In this document: positions 3,954 to 20,576 of the stretch, one piece after another
Position numbering within the stretch: the stretch's first letter is position 1
Layout: each line of letters starts with the position of its first letter
Source of the DNA: an uncultured archaeon
Lineage (GTDB): Archaea > Asgardarchaeota > Hermodarchaeia > Hermodarchaeales > Hermodarchaeaceae
Assembly (NCBI GenBank): GCA_964347045.1
Contig: CAYFXC010000028.1
Location: forward strand, 1 to 25,765
Reading direction: 5' to 3'
DNA: 25,765 bases
Translations under genes and position numbers: made by a program
Notes under the pieces: generated by a model
The model's input: the letters and a program-made list of their open reading frames with translations, nothing else
What the model was told of the DNA's origin: nothing
The model's database searches: none

Positions 3954-6194
3954 ATGCGTCGAAAATTTCTATCTCTTACAACTCTCCTACTAGCACTAAC
4001 GCTTTTACAAGTAAGTACGCCATTCAGTTTTGCAACCTTTATGCCCGGATACTATAATTCAACCGTAGCCTCCGTTTCAATGGATCCGATACCTGTAGAC
4101 ACCTTAACCATGCTTACATTCAATTCAACGTATGATTCGCAAGTTTACGCGCTATTAGTATCGAATCCAACACAGTTCAGTTTCAATATGTCCTTATACG
4201 TTGATTCCGCGCCACCCGGTCCATTCACATCCGTTTATTTTAACGTCAATCTTCGCGGGAGTGGCACCGAATACATTCCACACCTCAATCAACAACTCTT
4301 TGAAGTCAACCAATTCTGGTCTGACAACTGGTGGTGGCTAACACTCGGTTATTCTGATACCAGTTATACCGAGTTTTTGACAATCCAGTCTGGTTGGCTA
4401 ATCCTCGAATTTGATTTCGATTGGGATGATCCCACTGACCAGCTAAGTGTGAACTTCACACTAAGTCAGCTTTATGATTTAGATACAGCACAGTCCTTTA
4501 TGTGGGATCAAGATATTCTAACAAGCTGGCAAGACGATATGGAATGGGAAGCTTGTACGTTCATGCTTCCTGAAGCCAATTTATACAATGTATCTTTATA
4601 TGGAGAAATGGATTACACAACGACTGGTAGCTGGGGTGGAAATCTCAATTTTCAACCCTTCATGGATGTTGATTTTCTCGATCGTACTTATGGATCTCTT
4701 CTCCCGATTGACACGTACAATCCTTCGTTTGCTATACCTGCGGGTGCTGGTTCAGGGAACGCTAATTGGACCTACTGGGAACTCTACAAACTAGCACCAG
4801 ATGACTACTATCTCTTTGGACAAATTGGAACATTCGAATACCTCAACAGCAGTTCTGTATCTCTTCAAATGAATATCGAACCCCTCGGTATGTCAATGCT
4901 TGAAATTAACCAAACGATTAATCTCAGTTTCGATAGTACACCAACCGGGTCTCTTGCATATGTTGGTATTCACGCCCCACAAATGTACACCTATGAATTA
5001 TACTTTGATAATCACATTGGGGCCAACTGGTCTGTTGATTGTGTCGATGTGGATACAGGATGGCTTCCACCTACCTACGCCTATTATGAAGATGCTTCAT
5101 CGTACACGATTTTTGAAAATCGATTAGAAAATAGCTTTGTATTTTCCATACCAATGATGGATCCTACTCCAACGTCATCAATACTTGGAAATGAGTATCT
5201 TGAAGCATACGTGTTTGGGGGCACCAATGTTGCCTACATTAATGGCTCTGCTACAGGCGCGACATTTGCTCCAGGTGGCTATCAAAATACCTTTGATACT
5301 TTTTACATCCAAATCATCGCATCACCGTTTGGAGGAACACCAACTTCCGAGTTCAATATTACCTTCAACTTCGAAGCATATAATGTTGCCAACCTTCTAC
5401 CGAGTGGGGCTACCTTTGCAATCAATCAGACTATCGGACCTTTCTACCAAGCTTTTGCTCTCCCAGTGATTAGCGGCTTCGAATATGACTTGACAGTTTG
5501 GGCATCAGATTACAACAACTCAGGTGTTGTAGGGATCTTCTTGGCGCCCGTTTCTCAATTTTACCTAGATTGGCAGTGGATGGGATGGGTTCCGCTTTAT
5601 CAGACGACTCCACCAGGCTTGATACCAATGCAGGTAACAAATGTAAATGAAACTGCTGGGCTGAAGTTCATCGCAGTGCGAACCACAACCTTGTTTTTTG
5701 GACTGATGGGTGTGTCTATGAGTGGACCACCTCCAAGTGATACGACCGAAGTCACTGCCAACATTACGGAATCAGCTCCGCCATTCTATGCCCTGGGTAC
5801 CGTCGTTACTGAAACAATACAGGATACAGATTTGACTGTGTACAGTGTGAGCATCGTTGCAGGAACTAGCTATCGTCTCAGCCTCTCACTTAATGTGGGT
5901 GGTAGTTATGCACTTTGCTCCGTCTTTGATGGGTTCGGTTATACACCCTTTGATGCCAGTCTGTTTACACTTTATCTTGAAACAAGTAGTAGTTATCTCA
6001 ATTCCTCCATCACCTATCAAGCTCTGACCAGTGGACCTGTGACCATCTTTCTAATTGGACGTGGAACAGTTTCCTTCAGCCTTACACCTATTGGTGAAGC
6101 ACCAGGTTCTTTCGTGCTAGGACTAATGATTGGACTTATTTTCATGATTGTAGGAGTCATTATCGTCTATGTCGTCATGAGACGAAGATTCTAA
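3954..6194 (+). CDS. Secreted, C-terminally membrane-anchored cell-surface glycoprotein of unknown function
   Basis: Signal peptide MRRKFLSLTTLLLALTLL. The body is T/S/N/aromatic-rich with almost no Lys/Arg and about 17 NxS/T sequons (manual count). C-terminal PGSF + hydrophobic helix + RRRF. Confidence 0.85.
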   Translation: MRRKFLSLTTLLLALTLLQVSTPFSFATFMPGYYNSTVASVSMDPIPVDTLTMLTFNSTYDSQVYALLVSNPTQFSFNMSLYVDSAPPGPFTSVYFNVNLRGSGTEYIPHLNQQLFEVNQFWSDNWWWLTLGYSDTSYTEFLTIQSGWLILEFDFDWDDPTDQLSVNFTLSQLYDLDTAQSFMWDQDILTSWQDDMEWEACTFMLPEANLYNVSLYGEMDYTTTGSWGGNLNFQPFMDVDFLDRTYGSLLPIDTYNPSFAIPAGAGSGNANWTYWELYKLAPDDYYLFGQIGTFEYLNSSSVSLQMNIEPLGMSMLEINQTINLSFDSTPTGSLAYVGIHAPQMYTYELYFDNHIGANWSVDCVDVDTGWLPPTYAYYEDASSYTIFENRLENSFVFSIPMMDPTPTSSILGNEYLEAYVFGGTNVAYINGSATGATFAPGGYQNTFDTFYIQIIASPFGGTPTSEFNITFNFEAYNVANLLPSGATFAINQTIGPFYQAFALPVISGFEYDLTVWASDYNNSGVVGIFLAPVSQFYLDWQWMGWVPLYQTTPPGLIPMQVTNVNETAGLKFIAVRTTTLFFGLMGVSMSGPPPSDTTEVTANITESAPPFYALGTVVTETIQDTDLTVYSVSIVAGTSYRLSLSLNVGGSYALCSVFDGFGYTPFDASLFTLYLETSSSYLNSSITYQALTSGPVTIFLIGRGTVSFSLTPIGEAPGSFVLGLMIGLIFMIVGVIIVYVVMRRRF

Positions 6195-11776: not shown

Positions 11777-12163
11777 TTATTCATCAGGCGAAGCTATCAG
11801 TTTCTCAATGATTGCCTTGAAGGTCTCCGATGAGAGAGCACCTTTGATAAGATAGTCTTTGGCTCCCATGTCCATGACTTCTTGAACGGTTTCATCGTCG
11901 TCGATAGCAGTTAATGCGACGATTGCTACCTTTGGGTAATCAGTTGAGACCTGGCGGATTAGTTCGGTTCCGCTGATTTTTGGTAACACCAAATCAACGA
12001 AGAAGATGTGCGGGGGATTAGCCTTAAGCTTTTGGAGAGCTTCTTCCCCATCTACAGCGGTCTCTATTTCATAGTCTCTAAGTAGTAACTGCGCCGCTCG
12101 AAGGAATGTTTCAGAGTCATCTGCTAACAGAATTTTTATGCTATGCGATTTCTTGGAAACCAA
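11777..12163 (-). CDS. Stand-alone response-regulator receiver (CheY-like) domain
   Basis: ILLADDS acidic pocket, FFVDLVLP phosphoacceptor Asp, ALTA Thr and DYLIKG Lys. The probable TTG start at 12163 overlaps the upstream gene's end (ORF track start 12229). Confidence 0.9.
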   Translation of the reverse strand: MVSKKSHSIKILLADDSETFLRAAQLLLRDYEIETAVDGEEALQKLKANPPHIFFVDLVLPKISGTELIRQVSTDYPKVAIVALTAIDDDETVQEVMDMGAKDYLIKGALSSETFKAIIEKLIASPDE

Positions 12164-13595
12164 TTTGTGGTTTTCCCTCCACAAGGTGTGTATAGATACA
12201 ATATTGAGGAGTCGGGGGATTGATACCATGAAATATTGTGACTCCTTCCTTAACAGCTAAATTAACATGAATGTCCGAAAGATCCGCCAAATATTGGTTA
12301 ATCTCTGGCGTACTACTATAGCCGATAGTGACGGCGAGGTTACTTTCGGTAGCTGTGTCGTTGGCGATGCGTGTTGCCCATCGGGGGAGTTCCGCTGGAC
12401 CGAGCCAGGAATGCAGCCAGCCAAAACCGACAATACTAAGAAGGTCTTTGCACCCCTGATTCCGGAGTTCTTCTAATACCATGCTCCAGGCATTTTCAAG
12501 GTCAGAACTTTCACGAAAGGCTACCGTCTTATAATATGGTTCGCCAAGCTCTCCAGTCGCACTAGATACACCCAGACTTGTAGCCGCGCTTGCGAAAAGG
12601 CGAAGGTGTGTATTTAATTGATCAACAAAACCATAACGTAATGCGGCGGCTTTAAGGCGGCGAAAACTGAGTTTGTTGGGTGGTACAATAACTACTCCAC
12701 TTTTTTGTCGAAGAAAGTTTGCAATCATATTAAGTACTAGGCTATTGACCGTTTCATTGGCTACTCCTTCAGAGACATTGAGGAAAAAGGTGCTCCCACG
12801 ACGGAAACCACCAAAGATGGCGTCAAGTTCTTTTATACCTGATGAGAATCGACCACCTGTATGGGGAATAACCTCAAAATCCGAAACGCGAACAGCCTGC
12901 TCTGAATCATAAGAGTACAAAATAGTAAACCGATTACCACGAAGTGAAAACCCGCGCGTGGCTTGATCGATTGGAGTTCCACGCAACTTTATAATTCGGA
13001 TACTTCGCCACATACGTCCTTCTGTAAGTTCTTTAGTTACACAAACAATTCCATCGACAATGTGATCTAACGGTGATTCTTCAATTCCTTCAAAAACTAG
13101 AATAATTTTTCCGCTCAGTATACGACCAAGATTCGTTAATGCGCTTGTCAATCGCTGAGGATCTGCCTGTGCCGCTTCAATAATTGCATCAAATGAGTCA
13201 ATGATGCAAACAGGAGAGGTCATATCTCGTAGTCGATCATTTACAGCACTAATGAAGGTCAGCTCATCAGAATAAACCATTCGTGTTTTAGAGGGTTCCC
13301 CGGATTCAAAAGGGGCTTCTGGAACACCCATTATTGTAGGGGTGGCATCGACAATTTGGCTTTCCGGAAGCATCTCGAAAGCCCATGGAAACTGAGATTT
13401 CAAATTTGTGCTAGCAACACGTGAAGAAAGATAGATGAAGTTTTCAACGCTGAATCTGTCAGGAAGTGATTTAGTGAGTTGGTCTAAGAGAGATAAAGCA
13501 AATGTTGATTTGCCAGTTCCTGACCGTCCTTTAACAAGTAGCGTCTGTCCTTGTTCTTTTTTCAAGAATTCGATGAGTTCTGATGGGAAGGTCAC
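12141..13595 (-). CDS. Two-domain KaiC/RecA-fold ATPase, GvpD-like (intact N-domain P-loop, degenerate C-domain)
   Basis: N-domain: LLVKGRSGTGKS, YLSSRV, CIIDS, HIVDGIV, IKLRG. The second domain begins FSSGIKELDAIFGGFRRGS but has no Walker A. GTG 13595 has AGGTG upstream (alternative GTG 13607). Confidence 0.8.
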   Translation of the reverse strand: MTFPSELIEFLKKEQGQTLLVKGRSGTGKSTFALSLLDQLTKSLPDRFSVENFIYLSSRVASTNLKSQFPWAFEMLPESQIVDATPTIMGVPEAPFESGEPSKTRMVYSDELTFISAVNDRLRDMTSPVCIIDSFDAIIEAAQADPQRLTSALTNLGRILSGKIILVFEGIEESPLDHIVDGIVCVTKELTEGRMWRSIRIIKLRGTPIDQATRGFSLRGNRFTILYSYDSEQAVRVSDFEVIPHTGGRFSSGIKELDAIFGGFRRGSTFFLNVSEGVANETVNSLVLNMIANFLRQKSGVVIVPPNKLSFRRLKAAALRYGFVDQLNTHLRLFASAATSLGVSSATGELGEPYYKTVAFRESSDLENAWSMVLEELRNQGCKDLLSIVGFGWLHSWLGPAELPRWATRIANDTATESNLAVTIGYSSTPEINQYLADLSDIHVNLAVKEGVTIFHGINPPTPQYCIYTHLVEGKPQIGFQEIA

Positions 13596-13618
13596 GAGTT
13601 TGAGCACCTTTTATTTCT

Positions 13619-14158
13619 TTATTGTGTTGCCATTTCCGTATGTTCTAAGAGTAATTGTGAAATGATCTGGAAAAGTTCTTTGACGTTCGTTCCGTCTTTT
13701 GCGGAAGTTTCAGTATATCCTAGCATTTTGAGTTTTTTTCCAATCTTCTCAGCTAGCGCAGGTTCAACAACTCGGTCTTCTCTCAAATCGCTCTTATTAC
13801 CCACAAGATATAGAAGTACATCCGGTGCGCCCTGCTTTACATCGTTTACCCACTCATTAACACATTCTAAGGTATCTTTTCTAGTCAAATCAAATACGAC
13901 AATAGCAAAATCGGTTCCAAAGAGATACTGTACACGAACACGCCGAAAGGAGGTTTGGCCTGCCAGATCCCACACCTGAAGTGAAATATCTGAATCCCTG
14001 ATAGCGGTCTTGAATGTAAATATCGCCGCACCTAGAGTTGCTTTGTACCCTTCTTCAAAAGCATCAGTCATATAACGCTTGATGAGTGAGGTTTTCCCCA
14101 CGGCATAATCACCAATGATTGAAACCTTGAACATGTAACGGCTACTTTTTGGTACCAT
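13619..14158 (-). CDS. Rab-like small GTPase (Ras superfamily)
   Basis: G1 GDYAVGKT, G2 YKATLG, G3 WDLAGQ, G4 NKSD, G5 ETSAK. RabF-like SLQVW, FRRVR and VVFDLT. No C-terminal Cys prenylation motif. GGTGA RBS at 14168-14172. Confidence 0.95.
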   Translation of the reverse strand: MVPKSSRYMFKVSIIGDYAVGKTSLIKRYMTDAFEEGYKATLGAAIFTFKTAIRDSDISLQVWDLAGQTSFRRVRVQYLFGTDFAIVVFDLTRKDTLECVNEWVNDVKQGAPDVLLYLVGNKSDLREDRVVEPALAEKIGKKLKMLGYTETSAKDGTNVKELFQIISQLLLEHTEMATQ

Positions 14159-14265: not shown

Positions 14266-15006
14266 TTATTGAATGGGTGGTAAATCGGAGACCTGAATAC
14301 CTTTGTCACCTATTATAAGGAGGAGGGGGTTCATCTGGTGACTTGTGCCCCGCATTTTACCGATTTCAATAGTTCTAATTCGTACAGTTCCTTGGCTCAT
14401 AAGCTTCAAAATGATCACCCCGTCCATTAGAAATCCTTCAACATCGAAACGACCGATGCTATCATCTGTTGGACTTTCCACTGCGACTAAGCAGGTTGCT
14501 TTGCTCATACGGAGCGAGCGAACCATGTTGAGGAGATCATGTCGAATACGAAACAGATCCTTATGTTGAAGAGTCAGTGTTGATACCGAGTCGATGGCTA
14601 CTCGTTTTGCTTTAACGCGGCGTATTTCGCGATGAATTAAAGATAATAATGATTCCATCGTGAATTCTTCGCGACCAAGCACGGGGTGTTCTGGTTTAAG
14701 AACCACTCGTTCATTTTGAATCATCGGTGAAGCATCGACGAGTGCAATTAGTCCCCTATCGATGAGTTCTTGGAGGTCCCACCCAAATTGCTTCATATTT
14801 CGAACTGTCGATTCAATAGATTCTTCCATCGACACTAGTACACCTGGTTCCTTGAGTTCCATGGCGCCTTTGATGAGAAATTGGTTCATCAGAATCGATT
14901 TGCCAGTTCCTGGTCCTCCACTAATAAGAATCACCGCGCCTTTTGGAAATCCTCCGTGCAATGCTTCATCTAAGCCTGGTATGCCTGATTTTGTCTTTTC
15001 AGCCAC
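14266..15006 (-). CDS. Single-domain KaiC-like (RAD55 family) ATPase, all catalytic motifs intact
   Basis: SGIPGLDEALHGGFP, Walker A GGPGTGKS, SMEES catalytic Glu pair, Walker B VAIDS, DGVIIL and the KMRGT Arg finger. GTG 15006 is preferred over TTG 15042. Confidence 0.92.
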   Translation of the reverse strand: MAEKTKSGIPGLDEALHGGFPKGAVILISGGPGTGKSILMNQFLIKGAMELKEPGVLVSMEESIESTVRNMKQFGWDLQELIDRGLIALVDASPMIQNERVVLKPEHPVLGREEFTMESLLSLIHREIRRVKAKRVAIDSVSTLTLQHKDLFRIRHDLLNMVRSLRMSKATCLVAVESPTDDSIGRFDVEGFLMDGVIILKLMSQGTVRIRTIEIGKMRGTSHQMNPLLLIIGDKGIQVSDLPPIQ

Positions 15007-15202: not shown

Positions 15203-15910
15203 GTGATTCTCGATCCAATCCTGCAGGGAGGACTCCCTCATGGAACCAGTATTGCATTGATAGGACCACCAGGTTCAGGAAAAACTTGTCTTTGTCTTCA
15301 ATTAGTGTTGGATGCAGTAAATCAAGGACTTGATGGCTTATATCTTACAACTGAAAATACGCCATCTACTTTAGTCGAATATGCTCAAGGTTTTGGAATT
15401 CCTCTTCCAAATCAACCCACGAAAAACCCAATCCAATATGTCGATGCTTATAGCTGGAGAATTGGAATGCAAAAAGATCCATTTGCTTTTAGTCGAATTA
15501 GTAATCCTGGGAATCTTAATGAAGTAAATTTGATTATTACCGATCAAGCCAAACTTTTGAAGCCGGGTTCCATTGTTATTATTGATTCTATATCAGGTCT
15601 AAGCCTATCAGCTCCTGATGAACAACGAATTCGAACTTTTGTACATAGCCTTGCACAAAGGATTTGCATTCAAGGAAAGATTCTCGTTTTAATTCTCGAA
15701 GACAGGGCTCATGATCCTAGACTAATTACAAATCTTCGTTCTCTCGTTCAAGGGTCTATTCATACAAGGGTGGTTGATGGTTCCGATGGATCACTTCAAT
15801 GGTTTCTACGGATGTACAGCCTTATCGGAGTTCAACACGAGACTAGATGGTACGAAGTAGCCGTTGAAAAGAAGGGTCTAACCTTGAAAGGAGGTGCAAG
15901 AAGTGAATAA
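15203..15910 (+). CDS. Single-domain KaiC/RAD55-like ATPase lacking the Arg finger
   Basis: LDPILQGGLP, Walker A GPPGSGKT, TTEN, YVDAYSW and VIIDS. The KxRG position reads SLIG. GAGGGGG RBS. Confidence 0.85.
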   Translation: MILDPILQGGLPHGTSIALIGPPGSGKTCLCLQLVLDAVNQGLDGLYLTTENTPSTLVEYAQGFGIPLPNQPTKNPIQYVDAYSWRIGMQKDPFAFSRISNPGNLNEVNLIITDQAKLLKPGSIVIIDSISGLSLSAPDEQRIRTFVHSLAQRICIQGKILVLILEDRAHDPRLITNLRSLVQGSIHTRVVDGSDGSLQWFLRMYSLIGVQHETRWYEVAVEKKGLTLKGGARSE

Positions 15911-16586
15911 ACTAATCCATCTTGCTTTTGCCCCCACAGGAGCTTTACAAATTCCTCGGGGTTCACAGTTACTCATAATTGGACCTCCCAGTGTTGTCAA
16001 GACTTTGATTGCCCTAAGATATCTTGCTGATCGACTTAAAGCTGGTGAGCCTGCTGTTTTTGCAACCACACTTTGGTCTCCAAAACAAATTCGTGACTCA
16101 CTTCACCGAATGGGTGAAAGCCAAGTTGTTACCAAGCTTCGCATTGCTGACGGTATCTCTTGTGTAACTGCACAACCATCGCAGGAACCCTATTCTTTTC
16201 AAAATCTCTATGATTTAAACACTATCAACCTAGTCTTGCTCCAAGCTATTGCTGACCTTGAGAACGGTCATATTTGCCTGGATAATTTAACCACTTTGAT
16301 GACGTATTCATCACCGTTATCTGTCATTAAATTTCTTCAAGTTCTTTGTGCCAGAGTGAAAACCAAGGGAGTCACCGGTATCTATTTGATCGAAGAGGGA
16401 GTTCATGCAGAAACAATTGTTGCCACACTTCGATTTGTAGTTGATGGTGTTTTAGAAATTCAAGATGAAGAAGAGAAAGATCGTCTTAAACATAAGATTC
16501 GTTTAACTCATCTTCGTGGTACTCAGGTTGATTCACGTTGGCTCAAATATAACGAATCAAGCCATTTGATCAGAATCAAGAAGTGA
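15903..16586 (+). CDS. Degenerate KaiC/RAD55-like protein (broken P-loop, Arg finger retained)
   Basis: GPPSVVKT, TTLWS (no Glu), ICLDNL, RFVVDGVLEI and THLRG. GTG 15903 follows GGAGGTG and overlaps the upstream gene's end by 8 nt. Confidence 0.82.
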   Translation: MNKLIHLAFAPTGALQIPRGSQLLIIGPPSVVKTLIALRYLADRLKAGEPAVFATTLWSPKQIRDSLHRMGESQVVTKLRIADGISCVTAQPSQEPYSFQNLYDLNTINLVLLQAIADLENGHICLDNLTTLMTYSSPLSVIKFLQVLCARVKTKGVTGIYLIEEGVHAETIVATLRFVVDGVLEIQDEEEKDRLKHKIRLTHLRGTQVDSRWLKYNESSHLIRIKK

Positions 16587-16636: not shown

Positions 16637-17350
16637 TTATCCTTCTAAAAATCGCACTGAGCTGTCCTTGACTTGATTGAAGCTTGAGAATGTCTCATCT
16701 GATGATACTTCTTTAGTACTTGACTCTTTAGGTTTGGGTGGAAAGAGGTAGTAGATTATATCTTCAAAGGTTTCGATAAAACCTGGTACTAGTAAGATAG
16801 CGACTATACAGAGAACGAAAACACCGACAACACCTAAGATAAAGCTCATTGGATAGTGTGCCATTTCCCACGGTAGGATACCCATGTAGACAAGCCAGAT
16901 TTCAAAGACAACTCGCGCCACATTTGCAAAGAAGAGGATGATAGTGACAACAATCACAGCGAGGATTTTCCGCGACCAAGTACCTCTGGGCAAGGGAAGA
17001 ATTAATCCCATAAATACAGCAATTACTTGAATGCCCGTGCATTCACGTACAATTTGATACTGCTGAAATCCAATAACAAAAACGTAAACAATACCATTAA
17101 TCCAATCGATAAGAGCAAAAGAAGGAACACTAACCCAAGTTAAGAATACAGCTGATACGACGGCTGTTGGAATGCCGAGAATAAATGGTTGCGGAAGAAA
17201 ATATACTAAAAGCGTTATAGTAATAGCAATAATCAGGTACAAAACCAGAGCTCGCGGAGTCGGTCTTTCAATGTCTTCTGCTGAATCTTCAACTACTTTT
17301 TCTGGTTCGTCTCGGTTTCTAATTGGTTTATCAGTAGTTATTGGGTTCAC
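16637..17350 (-). CDS. Exosortase/archaeosortase family membrane protease-transpeptidase
   Basis: Multi-TM protein with the Cys-Arg-His triad in order: IVRECTG, ANVARV, EMAHY. Start uncertain (GTG 17350 chosen; the ORF is open to 17494). Confidence 0.85.
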   Translation of the reverse strand: MNPITTDKPIRNRDEPEKVVEDSAEDIERPTPRALVLYLIIAITITLLVYFLPQPFILGIPTAVVSAVFLTWVSVPSFALIDWINGIVYVFVIGFQQYQIVRECTGIQVIAVFMGLILPLPRGTWSRKILAVIVVTIILFFANVARVVFEIWLVYMGILPWEMAHYPMSFILGVVGVFVLCIVAILLVPGFIETFEDIIYYLFPPKPKESSTKEVSSDETFSSFNQVKDSSVRFLEG

Positions 17351-17567
17351 CGTCCTCGTAGCTGGGGGACTTGCCTTCCTAATGAATCTCCAATTCCTAG
17401 GAGAGACATTGGTACTTTTTGGAGTGTTTCTCTTCACTTCTACACTAATCTGCTGGATAGCAGCGCGTCGGCAAAGGAAACAATAATCAAGCAATTCTCC
17501 AATTATTTATTAGGCTTCTCCCTTCACCATTCATTATTTTGGCTGACATCAATCAATATGATCTTAG

Positions 17568-20500
17568 TCAGTTCCACATTGGAAGGAGGAAAATAAATTT
17601 CGCCCCCTTCGTATAATTTCCTTTTACTCTATCTTCAACCCAAATTTCTCCTCCATATCGATCAACAATACGCTGAACAAGGGTGAGACCTATACCCGAG
17701 CCTTGAGCCTTTTCAAAGACTCTTTGTGTGTAACGAGCAAAAATCCGCTTCTTCAAATCGTCTGGGATACCAGGTCCGTGATCACTTATTTCAACTCGAA
17801 GGAAGCGCTTATTCGTATCCGAGTGAACCTTCGCTTCAACCTCAACTTTTTCATGATGATCAAATTTTACTGAGTTATGAAGTAAATTGAAGAATAAATC
17901 GGCTAACAAATCATCAGCCAGAACTTTGTATTTATCTGGATGAATATTAGTATCCAATTTAATGGTTTTTTCAGGAAAAGCTTGTTTCACCGCCTGGAGT
18001 GCAGATTGGAAGTCAGGTTCGATATCTCTAATCTCCATCAGTGTTTCAATCTTATCCATTCCTGAAAACTTCTTTACTCTTCCAATCAGAGCCGCACTTC
18101 TTTCGACTTGGTGTAAAGATAATTGAAGTTGGGTTCTCAGGGTTTCAGGGAGTTCAGGATTTAATAATTGTAATTCTAAAGTTGAAAGAATTGCCTGATT
18201 AATATTGTTCAAATCATGTGCCATCAAGTCAGTGAAAAATTCCGCTCTAGCTTTTGCTTCTTCTAGAGCACGTTCGTCATCTTTTCGCTCTCTAATATTT
18301 CGTGTTACAATTATGTAGCCCTTGGGTTTTCCATCCGCTCCGATTAGAAGCGAAGCACTGATTTCTGCCGGAAATATAGATCCATCTTTTTGGGTAAGTG
18401 TGAAAGGGTAAGGAATAGATGGACTATGCTCCTTAGTAGCTCTTAAAAGTTTGATTGCATCATTTCGTTCTTCAGGAACAATGAAATCAAAACAATTTCT
18501 GCCTAAAAGCTCTTCAGGCGTCCTAAATCCCAACAACTGTACAGCGCGCTCATTGACCAAAATAATAATTCCTTCAGCGTTAGTAAGAGTAATAGCATCC
18601 GGAGAAGTTTCAACAAGAGAACGATATCGCGCTTCTGATTCACGCAATGTTTCATCAGTATTCATCCTTTGTGTGATGTCGCGACAAACTCCTCGGTAAC
18701 CGGTTAGTTCTCCATTATCTCCTATGACTGGTCGTCCACTGGCTTCAAGAATAATAATACTCCCATCTCTATGGACGAAACGATCAACAAGATTCTTGAA
18801 TGGTTTCTGTTTAGAAAGCGTTTCGGCGAAAATCGCTTCCCCCTCTTCAGCACTTGCTGGATCCATATATTCAAAAAATACCCGATCAATAATTTGTCCT
18901 GCTGTATACCCGAGGATATCTTCAACAGAACTATTTGAATATACAAACCTACCTTCGCGATTCACTTCCCAAACCCAATATGCTGTATCTTCAACCAGTG
19001 ACCTGAATTTTTCTTCAGAGGCCTTGAGTGCAATCTCAGCGAGTTTTCGTTCAGTGATATCCTCTCCAGAGCTTAAGATTCCTGTTCGATTTCCTTCCTC
19101 ATCTTCCAATATTGTAGTGTGCCACAGGATCATTCGCTCTGTTCCATCTTTGTTTATAATTGGATTTTCAACGAATTCTTTTAGCTGATAATCACTTGAC
19201 ATAGCTTTTTCGAAAAGTTCCTTCATTTCATCGCGATCACGTTCAGGGATGCACAAATCGAAATAATTCTGACCAATGAGTTCTTCTTCATTAAAACCAA
19301 AGATTTCACATCCTTTACGGTTAACCAAGAAAATACGCTGTTCCCTATCAATACCGAAAAACGCCGTACCTGCAACATCAAGATATTGTTGAGCCCGATC
19401 TCTTTCATACCGAATAACATCTTCTGCAATTTTCCGTTCATGAATATCCATAATAGTAGCTTGAGTAGCAGGTTTACCTTGGTATTCTATAACTGACAGG
19501 GACAGCTCAAACCATCGAATACTCCCATCCTTGAGGATTCCACGCAACTCTAAACTTGTTGAAACCGGTTGCCCTTGAATGATGTTCTGAAGCTGTTCCC
19601 AAGGAACATTTCGATCATCAGGATGAATAATTTCAAAAATCTTCCACGGTTCAAAGTCAAGGATTTCTTTTTCTGTGAACCCACTGATATTGAGAAACGC
19701 AGGATTGACAAAAACAACTTTGCCATCTTGAATGATGAATAATCCTTGGATTGATTGGTCGACTAATTTGTGGTAAGCTTCTTCGGCTCGTTTTCGCTCG
19801 GTAATTTCCTGAGTTACTTCGACACAACCAAGAAGCTGTTTATTCTCATCAAAAAGGGGATACCCATGTATTAGCCACACACGTCCATCGGGAGTGCGAA
19901 TTTCATTTTCATGAAATTCACCTGTATCCCTTGCAGCAACAACAGGGCAATCACTACAAGGGCTCTCTCGCTGTTGCCAGATTTCGTAACAATATTTTCC
20001 TATGAGTTCATCAACATTTAGATTCACCGAATCAGCTGCGGCTCGATTCGCCCAAACAATTCGGTTTTCTTTGTCATGGAAAATTACATGCTCTGAAATA
20101 CTATCCAAAATCACAGATTTTTCATGTTCGGATTTTTTCAACGCGTCTTGGCTTTGCTTTAACTCATCTTGTTTGTGTCTTAATTCAGTAATGTCTTTTT
20201 GAATTGAGATTGAATATTTTAATGACCCGTTATCGTCTCGAATTGCGTTTGCACTAAGTAAAACTGTTCGTCTATCTCCGGATTTGCTTTGAATAATGAG
20301 TTCTTCATCATTGATTGTGCCTTTTTCCTTCCAGGACAAAAATAGTTCTTTGACCTTCGCCTCGCATTCAGGTGCATATATGGTTCGGATGTGCTTCCCT
20401 ATTAATTCAACACGTGAGTAACCAAGTACTTTTAGTGCCGCTTTATTCAAATCTAAAAGAATTCCTTGGGGTGAGACCATATAGCAGTATAGGGGGGCAT

Positions 20501-20576
20501 TTTCAAAGAAAAGCCTAAACCGCGGGTCTTCATCTTCATCGGTGATTTCTTTTTCTTCTCGCTTGTGTGAAGACAT
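17568..20576 (-). CDS. Cytoplasmic sensor histidine kinase with six PAS/PAC domains
   Basis: Six PAS starts (FENAP, LDSISE, VDQSIQ, LDVAGT, VEDTAY, VETSPD), each ending in a DITE/EITE/DIHE/DITQ/NIRE-type linker. H-box MAHDLNN, N-box NLLHNSVKF, G1 DHGPGI, G2 GSGIGL. No TM segment. Confidence 0.96.
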   Translation of the reverse strand: MSSHKREEKEITDEDEDPRFRLFFENAPLYCYMVSPQGILLDLNKAALKVLGYSRVELIGKHIRTIYAPECEAKVKELFLSWKEKGTINDEELIIQSKSGDRRTVLLSANAIRDDNGSLKYSISIQKDITELRHKQDELKQSQDALKKSEHEKSVILDSISEHVIFHDKENRIVWANRAAADSVNLNVDELIGKYCYEIWQQRESPCSDCPVVAARDTGEFHENEIRTPDGRVWLIHGYPLFDENKQLLGCVEVTQEITERKRAEEAYHKLVDQSIQGLFIIQDGKVVFVNPAFLNISGFTEKEILDFEPWKIFEIIHPDDRNVPWEQLQNIIQGQPVSTSLELRGILKDGSIRWFELSLSVIEYQGKPATQATIMDIHERKIAEDVIRYERDRAQQYLDVAGTAFFGIDREQRIFLVNRKGCEIFGFNEEELIGQNYFDLCIPERDRDEMKELFEKAMSSDYQLKEFVENPIINKDGTERMILWHTTILEDEEGNRTGILSSGEDITERKLAEIALKASEEKFRSLVEDTAYWVWEVNREGRFVYSNSSVEDILGYTAGQIIDRVFFEYMDPASAEEGEAIFAETLSKQKPFKNLVDRFVHRDGSIIILEASGRPVIGDNGELTGYRGVCRDITQRMNTDETLRESEARYRSLVETSPDAITLTNAEGIIILVNERAVQLLGFRTPEELLGRNCFDFIVPEERNDAIKLLRATKEHSPSIPYPFTLTQKDGSIFPAEISASLLIGADGKPKGYIIVTRNIRERKDDERALEEAKARAEFFTDLMAHDLNNINQAILSTLELQLLNPELPETLRTQLQLSLHQVERSAALIGRVKKFSGMDKIETLMEIRDIEPDFQSALQAVKQAFPEKTIKLDTNIHPDKYKVLADDLLADLFFNLLHNSVKFDHHEKVEVEAKVHSDTNKRFLRVEISDHGPGIPDDLKKRIFARYTQRVFEKAQGSGIGLTLVQRIVDRYGGEIWVEDRVKGNYTKGAKFIFLLPMWN

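Follow-up and report, generated by a model that had tools for sequence, protein, structure and literature searches.

A tandem pair of KaiC-like genes with complementary active-site losses in Hermodarchaeia: candidate subunits of a composite ATPase

The stretch of DNA analysed in this study (hereafter the window), 25,765 nucleotides from an uncultured archaeon of the Hermodarchaeia and contig C28 of a 2.58-Mb genome that is 89% complete, carries two overlapping genes, A and B, each encoding a single-domain KaiC-like protein that lacks a different part of the RecA/KaiC active site. A retains the nucleotide-binding and catalytic motifs that act in cis and lacks the arginine finger that acts in trans, whereas B retains the finger Arg and lacks both the catalytic Glu and the Gly that precedes the P-loop Lys. 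As judged from the sequences, the two proteins probably work as an ATPase only as a pair, and the motifs, taken together with a predicted structure of the complex, make it rather likely that A and B form a hetero-oligomer with one composite ATPase site per pair. An earlier note on this DNA, which had been made from its letters alone, proposed complementary losses of this kind, and all the motifs that it quoted for A and B are indeed present at the positions given there (Table 1).

Active-site motifs of A and B

Both proteins were recognised as members of the KaiC family of Pfam, PF06745, with scores of 86.7 bits for A and 76.0 bits for B against a cut-off of 26.6, and B in addition matched DUF7504 with 47.5 bits against a cut-off of 27. 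Their close homologues carry the database names Promethearchaeota, Hermodarchaeia and Hodarchaeota. Alignment with C, the KaiC-like protein encoded divergently next to A, gave the motif row GPPGSGKT, TTEN, IDSIS, QGSI and SLIG for A, and GPPSVVKT, TTLW, LDNLT, DGVL and HLRG for B. C itself, which had been described as an intact paralog, carries GGPGTGKS, MEES, IDSVS, DGVI and KMRG, in good agreement with that description.

For the analysis of conservation of A, we used 55 homologues of at least 200 amino acid residues (aa) from a total of 58 that were found by database search, the 3 shorter ones being dropped. The Walker A sequence GxxGxGK[TS] is intact in 53 of these 55 (the other 2 are gapped at the site), the catalytic Glu is present in 54 and the Walker B Asp in all 55. 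The finger position, by contrast with this cis-acting set, is occupied by Ile, Val or Leu, with neither Arg nor Lys, in 54/55. The Asp of the DGV strand (window 15737-15751, residues 179-183 of A) is likewise replaced, by Gln or His, in 54/55, and is kept in 64 of 72 single-domain relatives and in 40/40 homologues of B. This replacement is therefore a second change on the trans-acting face of A, since the adjoining residues of B, 182-183, touch the P-loop of A in the model described below. A single outlier, P0058, which is 31% identical, accounts for the exception at the Glu, at the finger and at the DGV Asp. The earlier note had set SLIG of A against a family motif KxRG. The loss of the finger stands; the norm of the subfamily to which A and B belong is, however, x-S-[LM]-[KR]-G and not KxRG, so that the derived loss in A comes down to one residue, from Arg or Lys to Ile, Val or Leu.

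The alignment for B comprised 40 homologues of at least 200 aa out of 47 found by database search (7 shorter ones were dropped). None of the 40 has Gly before the P-loop Lys, the position being Val, Ala, Ile or Thr, and the catalytic position is Leu, Val or His throughout, never Glu or Asp. The P-loop Lys, the Walker B Asp and the DGV Asp are each conserved in 40/40, and the finger Arg in all 39 homologues that cover the site. What had been called a broken P-loop is thus broken at the Gly before the Lys, and in some orthologues also at the fourth position; the term does not extend to the Lys or to the Walker B Asp. B is not undergoing decay: in these alignments of homologues its columns have a mean identity of 68%, as against 59% for A.

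The trans-acting residues of cyanobacterial KaiC are K224 and R226. The retained Arg of B, R205, aligns with residue 226 of KaiC (alignment coordinates), and His replaces the KaiC-type Lys in B itself. Residue 226 is described, in an excerpt of PMC9171630, as lying at the C1-C1 interface, where it holds the lytic water.

The complementary losses were thus found to be conserved in the orthologues of both genes, and even the most distant pair, which shares 40% identity and comes from genome G145 of a neighbouring family, shows the same states, with GKPGSGKT, TTENT and ELLG in A and GPPGSAKI, MTLT and YVRG in B. Because it is conserved across orthologues in this way, the motif pattern of A and B is not one of chance. 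A class of inactivated KaiC-like domains, termed iKaiC, was reportedly set up by Makarova, Galperin and Koonin in 2017. B carries the features by which this class is defined, namely a KaiC-like fold with disrupted nucleotide-binding and catalytic motifs, and it also matches DUF7504.

Linkage of the two genes and the predicted complex

Linkage of A and B was searched in 301 genomes of the phylum, including the family of the window (f1, 18 genomes) and the neighbouring family (f6, 76 genomes). Orthologues of A were identified in 14 of the 18 f1 genomes and in the one f6 genome, G145, and orthologues of B likewise in 14 of 18 and in G145. The two genes are adjacent and co-directional in all 14 genomes that have both on one contig, the genome of the window (G000) included; the three remaining cases (G073, G096 and G101) are cut by contig ends. 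Throughout the 301 genomes, A and B were never found apart on an intact contig.

At the junction in the window, the start of B and the stop of A overlap by 8 nt, with GTG 15903 located within GTGAATAA and the TAA of A at 15908-15910, and a Shine-Dalgarno-like GGAGGTG is formed by the Gly-Gly codons at the end of A (Table 1). The overlap and the ribosome-binding site that the earlier note had reported are accordingly both there, and we consider that translation of A and B is probably coupled, given this overlap and the position of the site within the last codons of A. An alternative in-frame start of B, GTG 15894 inside GGAGGTG, would give a protein of 230 aa. In all 14 loci the junction is an overlap or a gap of at most 3 nt, and a GGAGG-like run (GGAGG, GGGGG or GGAGA) made by the C-terminal Gly-Gly codons of A stands upstream of the stop of A in 14/14, while the exact start codon of B varies between orthologues.

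A fusion of A and B by read-through was ruled out, because B lies in the +1 frame relative to A. No fused form was detected either in an exhaustive search of 1.84 billion representatives, which gave 432 hits at E <= 1e-10 and only 2 proteins, of 242 and 230 aa, at E <= 1e-30, the range in which a fused form would appear; both of these are orthologues of A. A 436-aa A-like open reading frame (ORF) in genome G020 was considered as a candidate fusion and rejected, since it is a fusion of a KaiC-like domain and a receiver (REC) domain at 26% identity. This ORF (L041:1158-2468, minus strand) carries a subfamily-2 KaiC-like domain with GPPGVGKS, without the catalytic Glu and with HHLDG, that is, with Asp at the finger position; its C-terminal stretch resembles a receiver domain by eye, and it adjoins a C-like gene and a Ras-like GTPase gene.

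Structural models were obtained for both proteins with AlphaFold2 (AF2), with a predicted local distance difference test (pLDDT) value of 89.4 for A and 91.8 for B. The best match of fold by Foldseek was PH0284 (2dr3) in both cases, with a template-modelling (TM) score of 0.79-0.80 for A and 0.78-0.83 for B and E values down to 7e-17, followed by SSO2452, KaiC CI and FlaH. We then predicted the forward interface of the complex from the alignments of A and B at 1:1 stoichiometry with ATP and Mg, in three runs with three controls. The median ipSAE was 0.67 (0.70, 0.67 and 0.59 in the three runs) as against 0.00 for the best of the 3 controls; of the solved complexes, 116 of 157 reach the mark used for this score, and of the mismatched pairs 2 of 215. 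Agreement in contacts between the runs is at least 97%, and the pLDDT of the partner is at least 88.

In all three runs the P-loop face of A is set against the Arg face of B. The modelled interface involves, on the side of A, residues 22-24 and 28 of the P-loop, 51-52 (E51-N52), 129-135 of the Walker B region and 166-171, and, on the side of B, the helix 139-154, the strand 170-183 and residues 202-203 and 205-208 (H203 and R205-Q208). The arrangement agrees with the one that had been predicted, the face of A with Walker A, Glu and Walker B being apposed to the face of B with H203 and R205, and the model passed its controls. It supports the binding of A to B, without showing it.

Conserved gene cluster and family placement

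The pair lies in a conserved cluster of signalling genes, of which the features are listed in Table 1. The response regulator, the GvpD-like protein, the Ras-family GTPase and C are encoded in this order on one strand, A and B diverge from them, and the membrane protein and the histidine kinase follow. This order recurs across f1; in G145 the GTPase gene is located downstream of B. C adjoins A in 12/12 loci of which the contig reaches that far, and C is the most conserved member, with 74-92% identity within f1 as against 49-78% for A and B. The GvpD-like protein carries the Walker A sequence GRSGTGKS and KLRG but lacks the catalytic Glu (LSSRV), so that, of the four KaiC-superfamily proteins encoded in the cluster, no two retain the same set of active-site motifs.

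When their longest ORFs are taken, the genes of the response regulator and of the GvpD-like protein overlap by 89 nt; since the receiver domain begins at residue 33, the true start of the regulator is probably located further downstream. For the membrane protein, a look-up by language model pointed weakly to exosortase/archaeosortase (score 0.88), which we regard as a lead only. Elsewhere in the window, a 746-aa ORF (3954-6194, plus strand) gave no Pfam match at E <= 0.001. In the genome, which is incomplete as stated above, the best match to KaiB (PF07689) scored 22.8 bits, below the cut-off of 27. As to expression, the sequencing runs listed as containing the locus included none of RNA, the single one being a DNA run that may be the source sample.

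Table 1. Positions of A, B, their motifs and the neighbouring genes in the window
Feature	Position	Strand	Basis
Gene A, single-domain KaiC-like, 235 aa, GTG start	15203..15910	+	ORF; PF06745 E=2e-24
A, Walker A GPPGSGKT, residues 21-28 (G21-T28)	15263..15286	+	sequence, alignment
A, TTEN, residues 49-52, catalytic Glu E51	15347..15358	+	aligned to MEES of intact paralog C
A, Walker B IIDSISGL, residues 126-133, Asp D128	15578..15601	+	alignment; D128 invariant
A, SLIG, residues 206-209 (S206-G209), at the [KR]-G finger site of the family, without Lys or Arg	15818..15829	+	alignment
Shine-Dalgarno-like GGAGGTG for gene B, from the C-terminal Gly-Gly codons of A	15890..15896	+	sequence; 7 nt upstream of the GTG of B
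Gene B, single-domain inactivated KaiC-like, 227 aa from GTG 15903	15903..16586	+	ORF; PF06745 E=3.7e-21, DUF7504 E=3.8e-12
B, degenerate P-loop GPPSVVKT, residues 27-34 (G27-T34), Lys kept, Gly before Lys lost	15981..16004	+	alignment
B, TTLW, L57 at the catalytic Glu position	16065..16076	+	alignment
B, Walker B Asp D127, kept	16281..16283	+	Asp in 40/40; invariant
B, HLRG, residues 203-206 (H203-G206), R205 the retained trans-acting Arg	16509..16520	+	alignment
Response regulator receiver, stand-alone	11777..12229	-	PF00072 E=2.7e-21; synteny
GvpD-like two-part KaiC-superfamily protein	12141..13607	-	GvpD_P-loop 8.1e-14, GvpD_bR2 7.5e-08; synteny
Ras-family small GTPase	13619..14158	-	PF00071 E=1.1e-44; synteny
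Gene C, intact classical KaiC-like paralog, divergent from A-B	14266..15006	-	PF06745 E=1e-66; all motifs
Conserved multi-pass membrane protein adjoining B	16637..17494	-	ORF, synteny; no Pfam match
Multi-PAS histidine kinase	17568..20576	-	Pfam PAS domains and HATPase_c; synteny

No other member of the subfamily of A and B occurs in this genome; the two share the sequence marks VDxYSWRxG, DLNELS, LEEGVH and x-S-[LM]-[KR]-G-x-x-H-x-T-x-W, which are absent from C. The latter belongs to a different KaiC-like subfamily, with an identity of about 28% to A over 150 residues. Lys or Arg occupies the finger position in 53 of the 72 single-domain relatives, so the loss of the finger in A reads as unusual among them; the residue two before that position is usually Ser. 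In the phylogenetic trees, the clades of A and of B each have support of 100 on stems of 1.1-1.3, and both fall inside one 42-row clade (support 97).

In the neighbouring family, B-like matches of about 30% identity were found in 65 of the 76 f6 genomes. In nine of the ten f6 loci that were fetched (L042-L050), the B-like gene is located directly 3' of a C-like gene and beside Ras-like GTPase genes, of which most loci have two; in the tenth, L051, it has no C-like neighbour. The B-like gene of these nine loci has the P-loop and finger intact (GPxGSGKT, TTD, DSLS and ERMRG), and the cluster, for example L043:2882-9971, also includes two small ORFs and the genes of two proteins, one of about 375 aa and one of about 767 aa. 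It therefore seems usual for a C-type gene to be accompanied by one subfamily-2 gene. From the sequence comparison, the f6 cluster looks like a widespread Asgard module of a KaiC-like pair and small GTPases, and A and B look like a lineage-specific split of roles. Descent of A and B from the B-like gene of f6 was considered and is unsupported, this gene lying outside the 42-row clade.

Three more inactivated KaiC-like genes that keep the Arg were found in the genome of the window, one at C2:106725 and two as a second tandem KaiC-like pair on contig C8 (G000:C8:96768-98409; L008 and L009). The P-loops of the C8 pair are fully eroded (EELHGESSG and EELKGESRG), but each of the two retains K-N-R-G and has Glu in the catalytic position.

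Proposed mechanism, its alternatives and related systems

We propose that A and B are joined through the standard subunit interface of RecA/KaiC proteins. A would bind ATP with its own Walker A (K27 and T28), catalytic Glu (E51) and Walker B Asp (D128), and R205 of B would complete this site in trans, A hydrolysing ATP only with R205 inserted across the interface. The reverse interface, made by the P-loop face of B and the finger face of A, would be catalytically dead on both sides, because B lacks the Gly before the Lys and the Glu, and A lacks the finger Arg and the DGV Asp. With the reverse interface dead, the assembly would have a single active site if it is an AB dimer, and three active sites beside three dead ones if A and B close into an (AB)3 ring. 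As the pair is located within a conserved signalling cluster, turnover of ATP, or trans-phosphorylation of B, is probably a regulated step of the pathway; KaiC-type transfer from A-bound ATP to the interface strand of B, which holds the invariant T175, is conceivable as an alternative output. A more elaborate form of this proposal, which we put forward as tentative, is an alternating (AB)3 ring that would represent an independent and recent split of catalytic and finger subunits, of the F1 type, within the KaiC-like signalling ATPases of Asgard archaea, perhaps with a hexamer of C as partner in a CI/CII-like double ring made from separate genes, under the control of the Ras-like GTPase and the two-component proteins.

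Several observations weigh against the composite site. The finger position is without Lys or Arg also in 19 of the 72 single-domain relatives, many of which keep Lys or Arg two or three residues earlier, and the loss of the finger alone is therefore no proof of dependence on a partner. A itself has invariant or near-invariant Arg at 144, 153, 179 and 203, one of which may, to go by sequence conservation, substitute for the finger in a homomer of A. As regards an origin of the pair by tandem duplication, A and B do not come out of the trees as sisters, and the approximately unbiased (AU) test neither rejects nor shows their sisterhood (difference in log-likelihood 1.84, p = 0.41). Since solved homohexamers exist in the family, the complex prediction may have passed partly by likeness to, or memory of, those of KaiC and PH0284, and our use of own alignments and of a riding ligand departs from the calibration of the complex tool. 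Finally, the faces that would close a ring are averagely conserved, with permutation p = 0.50 for the P-loop face of B and 0.40 for the finger face of A, whereas the forward faces have 0.02 and 0.10, values that are partly a trivial effect of the catalytic motifs themselves; the reverse faces still hold many invariant residues, such as G27, P29 and K33 of B and S206 and G209 of A.

Among the alternatives, A could be a self-sufficient ATP switch or a slow autokinase that works without a finger, and B a plain inactivated scaffold of which the Arg is non-catalytic for A. Some single-domain KaiC-like proteins, ArlH/FlaH among them, have been proposed to be independent of the finger, and the 19 finger-less relatives counted above speak for this explanation. 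As to B, domains that are inactivated but retain the Arg are common among KaiC-like proteins, the genome of the window having the three more described above, and they form a described class of domains in signalling proteins, iKaiC, in an excerpt of PMC5847659. This explanation, however, leaves unaccounted for the constant adjacency and overlap of A and B, the retention of Arg in every covering homologue of B despite the dead site of its own, and the placement of this Arg on the P-loop of A in all model runs, and we hold it to be improbable.

Equally doubtful in our estimate is that A or B, or both, join, cap or poison a ring of C, A taking the finger of C and B donating its Arg to C or blocking the site of C, with a mixed ring, or a ring of C stacked on a ring of A and B, as the functional unit. 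The constant divergent neighbourhood of C and A speaks for it, as does the arrangement of a C-like gene followed by an undegenerate subfamily-2 gene in 9 of the 10 f6 loci, by which the two look like habitual partners. C, however, is from the different subfamily described above, and it carries all of the motifs and does not require a partner for activity. A partnership with C appears in any case compatible with, and not opposed to, the composite site of A and B. It is highly unlikely that A and B are paralogs which have drifted independently, serve unrelated functions and complement each other merely by coincidence, and this reading is disfavoured here. Motifs do vary widely in the KaiC-like family, which is a large one, but the state of A and that of B are each fixed in the orthologues down to 40% identity, purifying selection on both A and B is clear, and the genes never come apart on an intact contig.

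The composite site of A and B, as proposed herein, can be compared with several systems. The archaeal single-domain ATPases of the KaiC-like/RAD55 type (PF06745; PH0284 2dr3, SSO2452 2w0m and PH0186 2zts) are of the same family, size and fold (TM 0.72-0.83), and their full set of cis-acting motifs is likewise present in A; the known examples have the P-loop and the finger in a single gene, whereas A and B split the site over two coupled genes. Cyanobacterial KaiC is of the same domain family, with R226 at the position of R205 of B, but is one chain of about 500 aa with two complete domains that forms stacked rings and has KaiB and KaiA as its partners. A and B are separate single domains and not bona fide KaiC clock proteins, since they lack tandem complete domains, lie in separate frames and have no KaiB above the cut-off. 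iKaiC domains resemble B in the disrupted Walker A, the absence of the catalytic Glu and the match to DUF7504; in the excerpt of PMC5847659 they are not described as donors of a finger to a finger-less active paralog, which is the role proposed for B. No KaiC-like pair of this kind was found described in the open-access literature searched.

Torsin is an ATPase that is activated by a degenerate homologue, LAP1 or LULL1, which has lost the nucleotide motifs and keeps a strictly conserved finger Arg, and an alternating heterohexamer of Torsin and LAP1 has been proposed, both according to an excerpt of PMC4358337. The logic is the same as that proposed for A and B, but Torsin is a eukaryotic, membrane-tethered AAA+ protein of which the partners are not adjacent paralogs. 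Structures of RAD51B (8ouy and 8faz) were among the weak matches. Rad55-Rad57 and the RAD51-paralog complexes are RecA-like heteromers with unequal ATP sites that act in DNA recombination; A and B, in contrast, stand among signalling genes and have no DNA-repair neighbours.

A further parallel is with the heads of the F1 and V1 ATPases (alpha3beta3 and A3B3), which are built of two RecA-superfamily paralogs. P-loop and catalytic carboxylate belong to the catalytic subunit; its non-catalytic counterpart has no such carboxylate and supplies the Arg finger, the reverse interface being non-catalytic. The division of labour predicted for A and B resembles this one, in another family of the superfamily. 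In F1 alpha the binding of nucleotide is retained, whereas the P-loop of B is without the Gly before the Lys, and no stalk or membrane partner is evident for A and B. The division into catalytic and Arg-donor subunits is thus known for RecA-type and AAA+ sites, and what would be new here, as far as we could find, is its occurrence in KaiC-like proteins.

It has been proposed that signalling in archaea has its main hubs in KaiC-like ATPases. To our knowledge, almost none of the archaeal ones has been characterised, and the inactivated copies have no assigned mechanism. If the present proposal is true, an inactivated copy is given a concrete job, namely to supply the Arg finger that its dedicated partner lacks, in a pair of small, soluble-looking proteins. 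The cluster, for its part, connects KaiC-like proteins with Ras-like GTPases, and does so in the lineage of archaea nearest to eukaryotes. On the present proposal, A and B would be a young and traceable case of a homomeric ring ATPase splitting into catalytic and regulatory subunits, the same step that underlies the F1 and V1 ATPases, the RAD51 paralogs and Torsin-LAP1.

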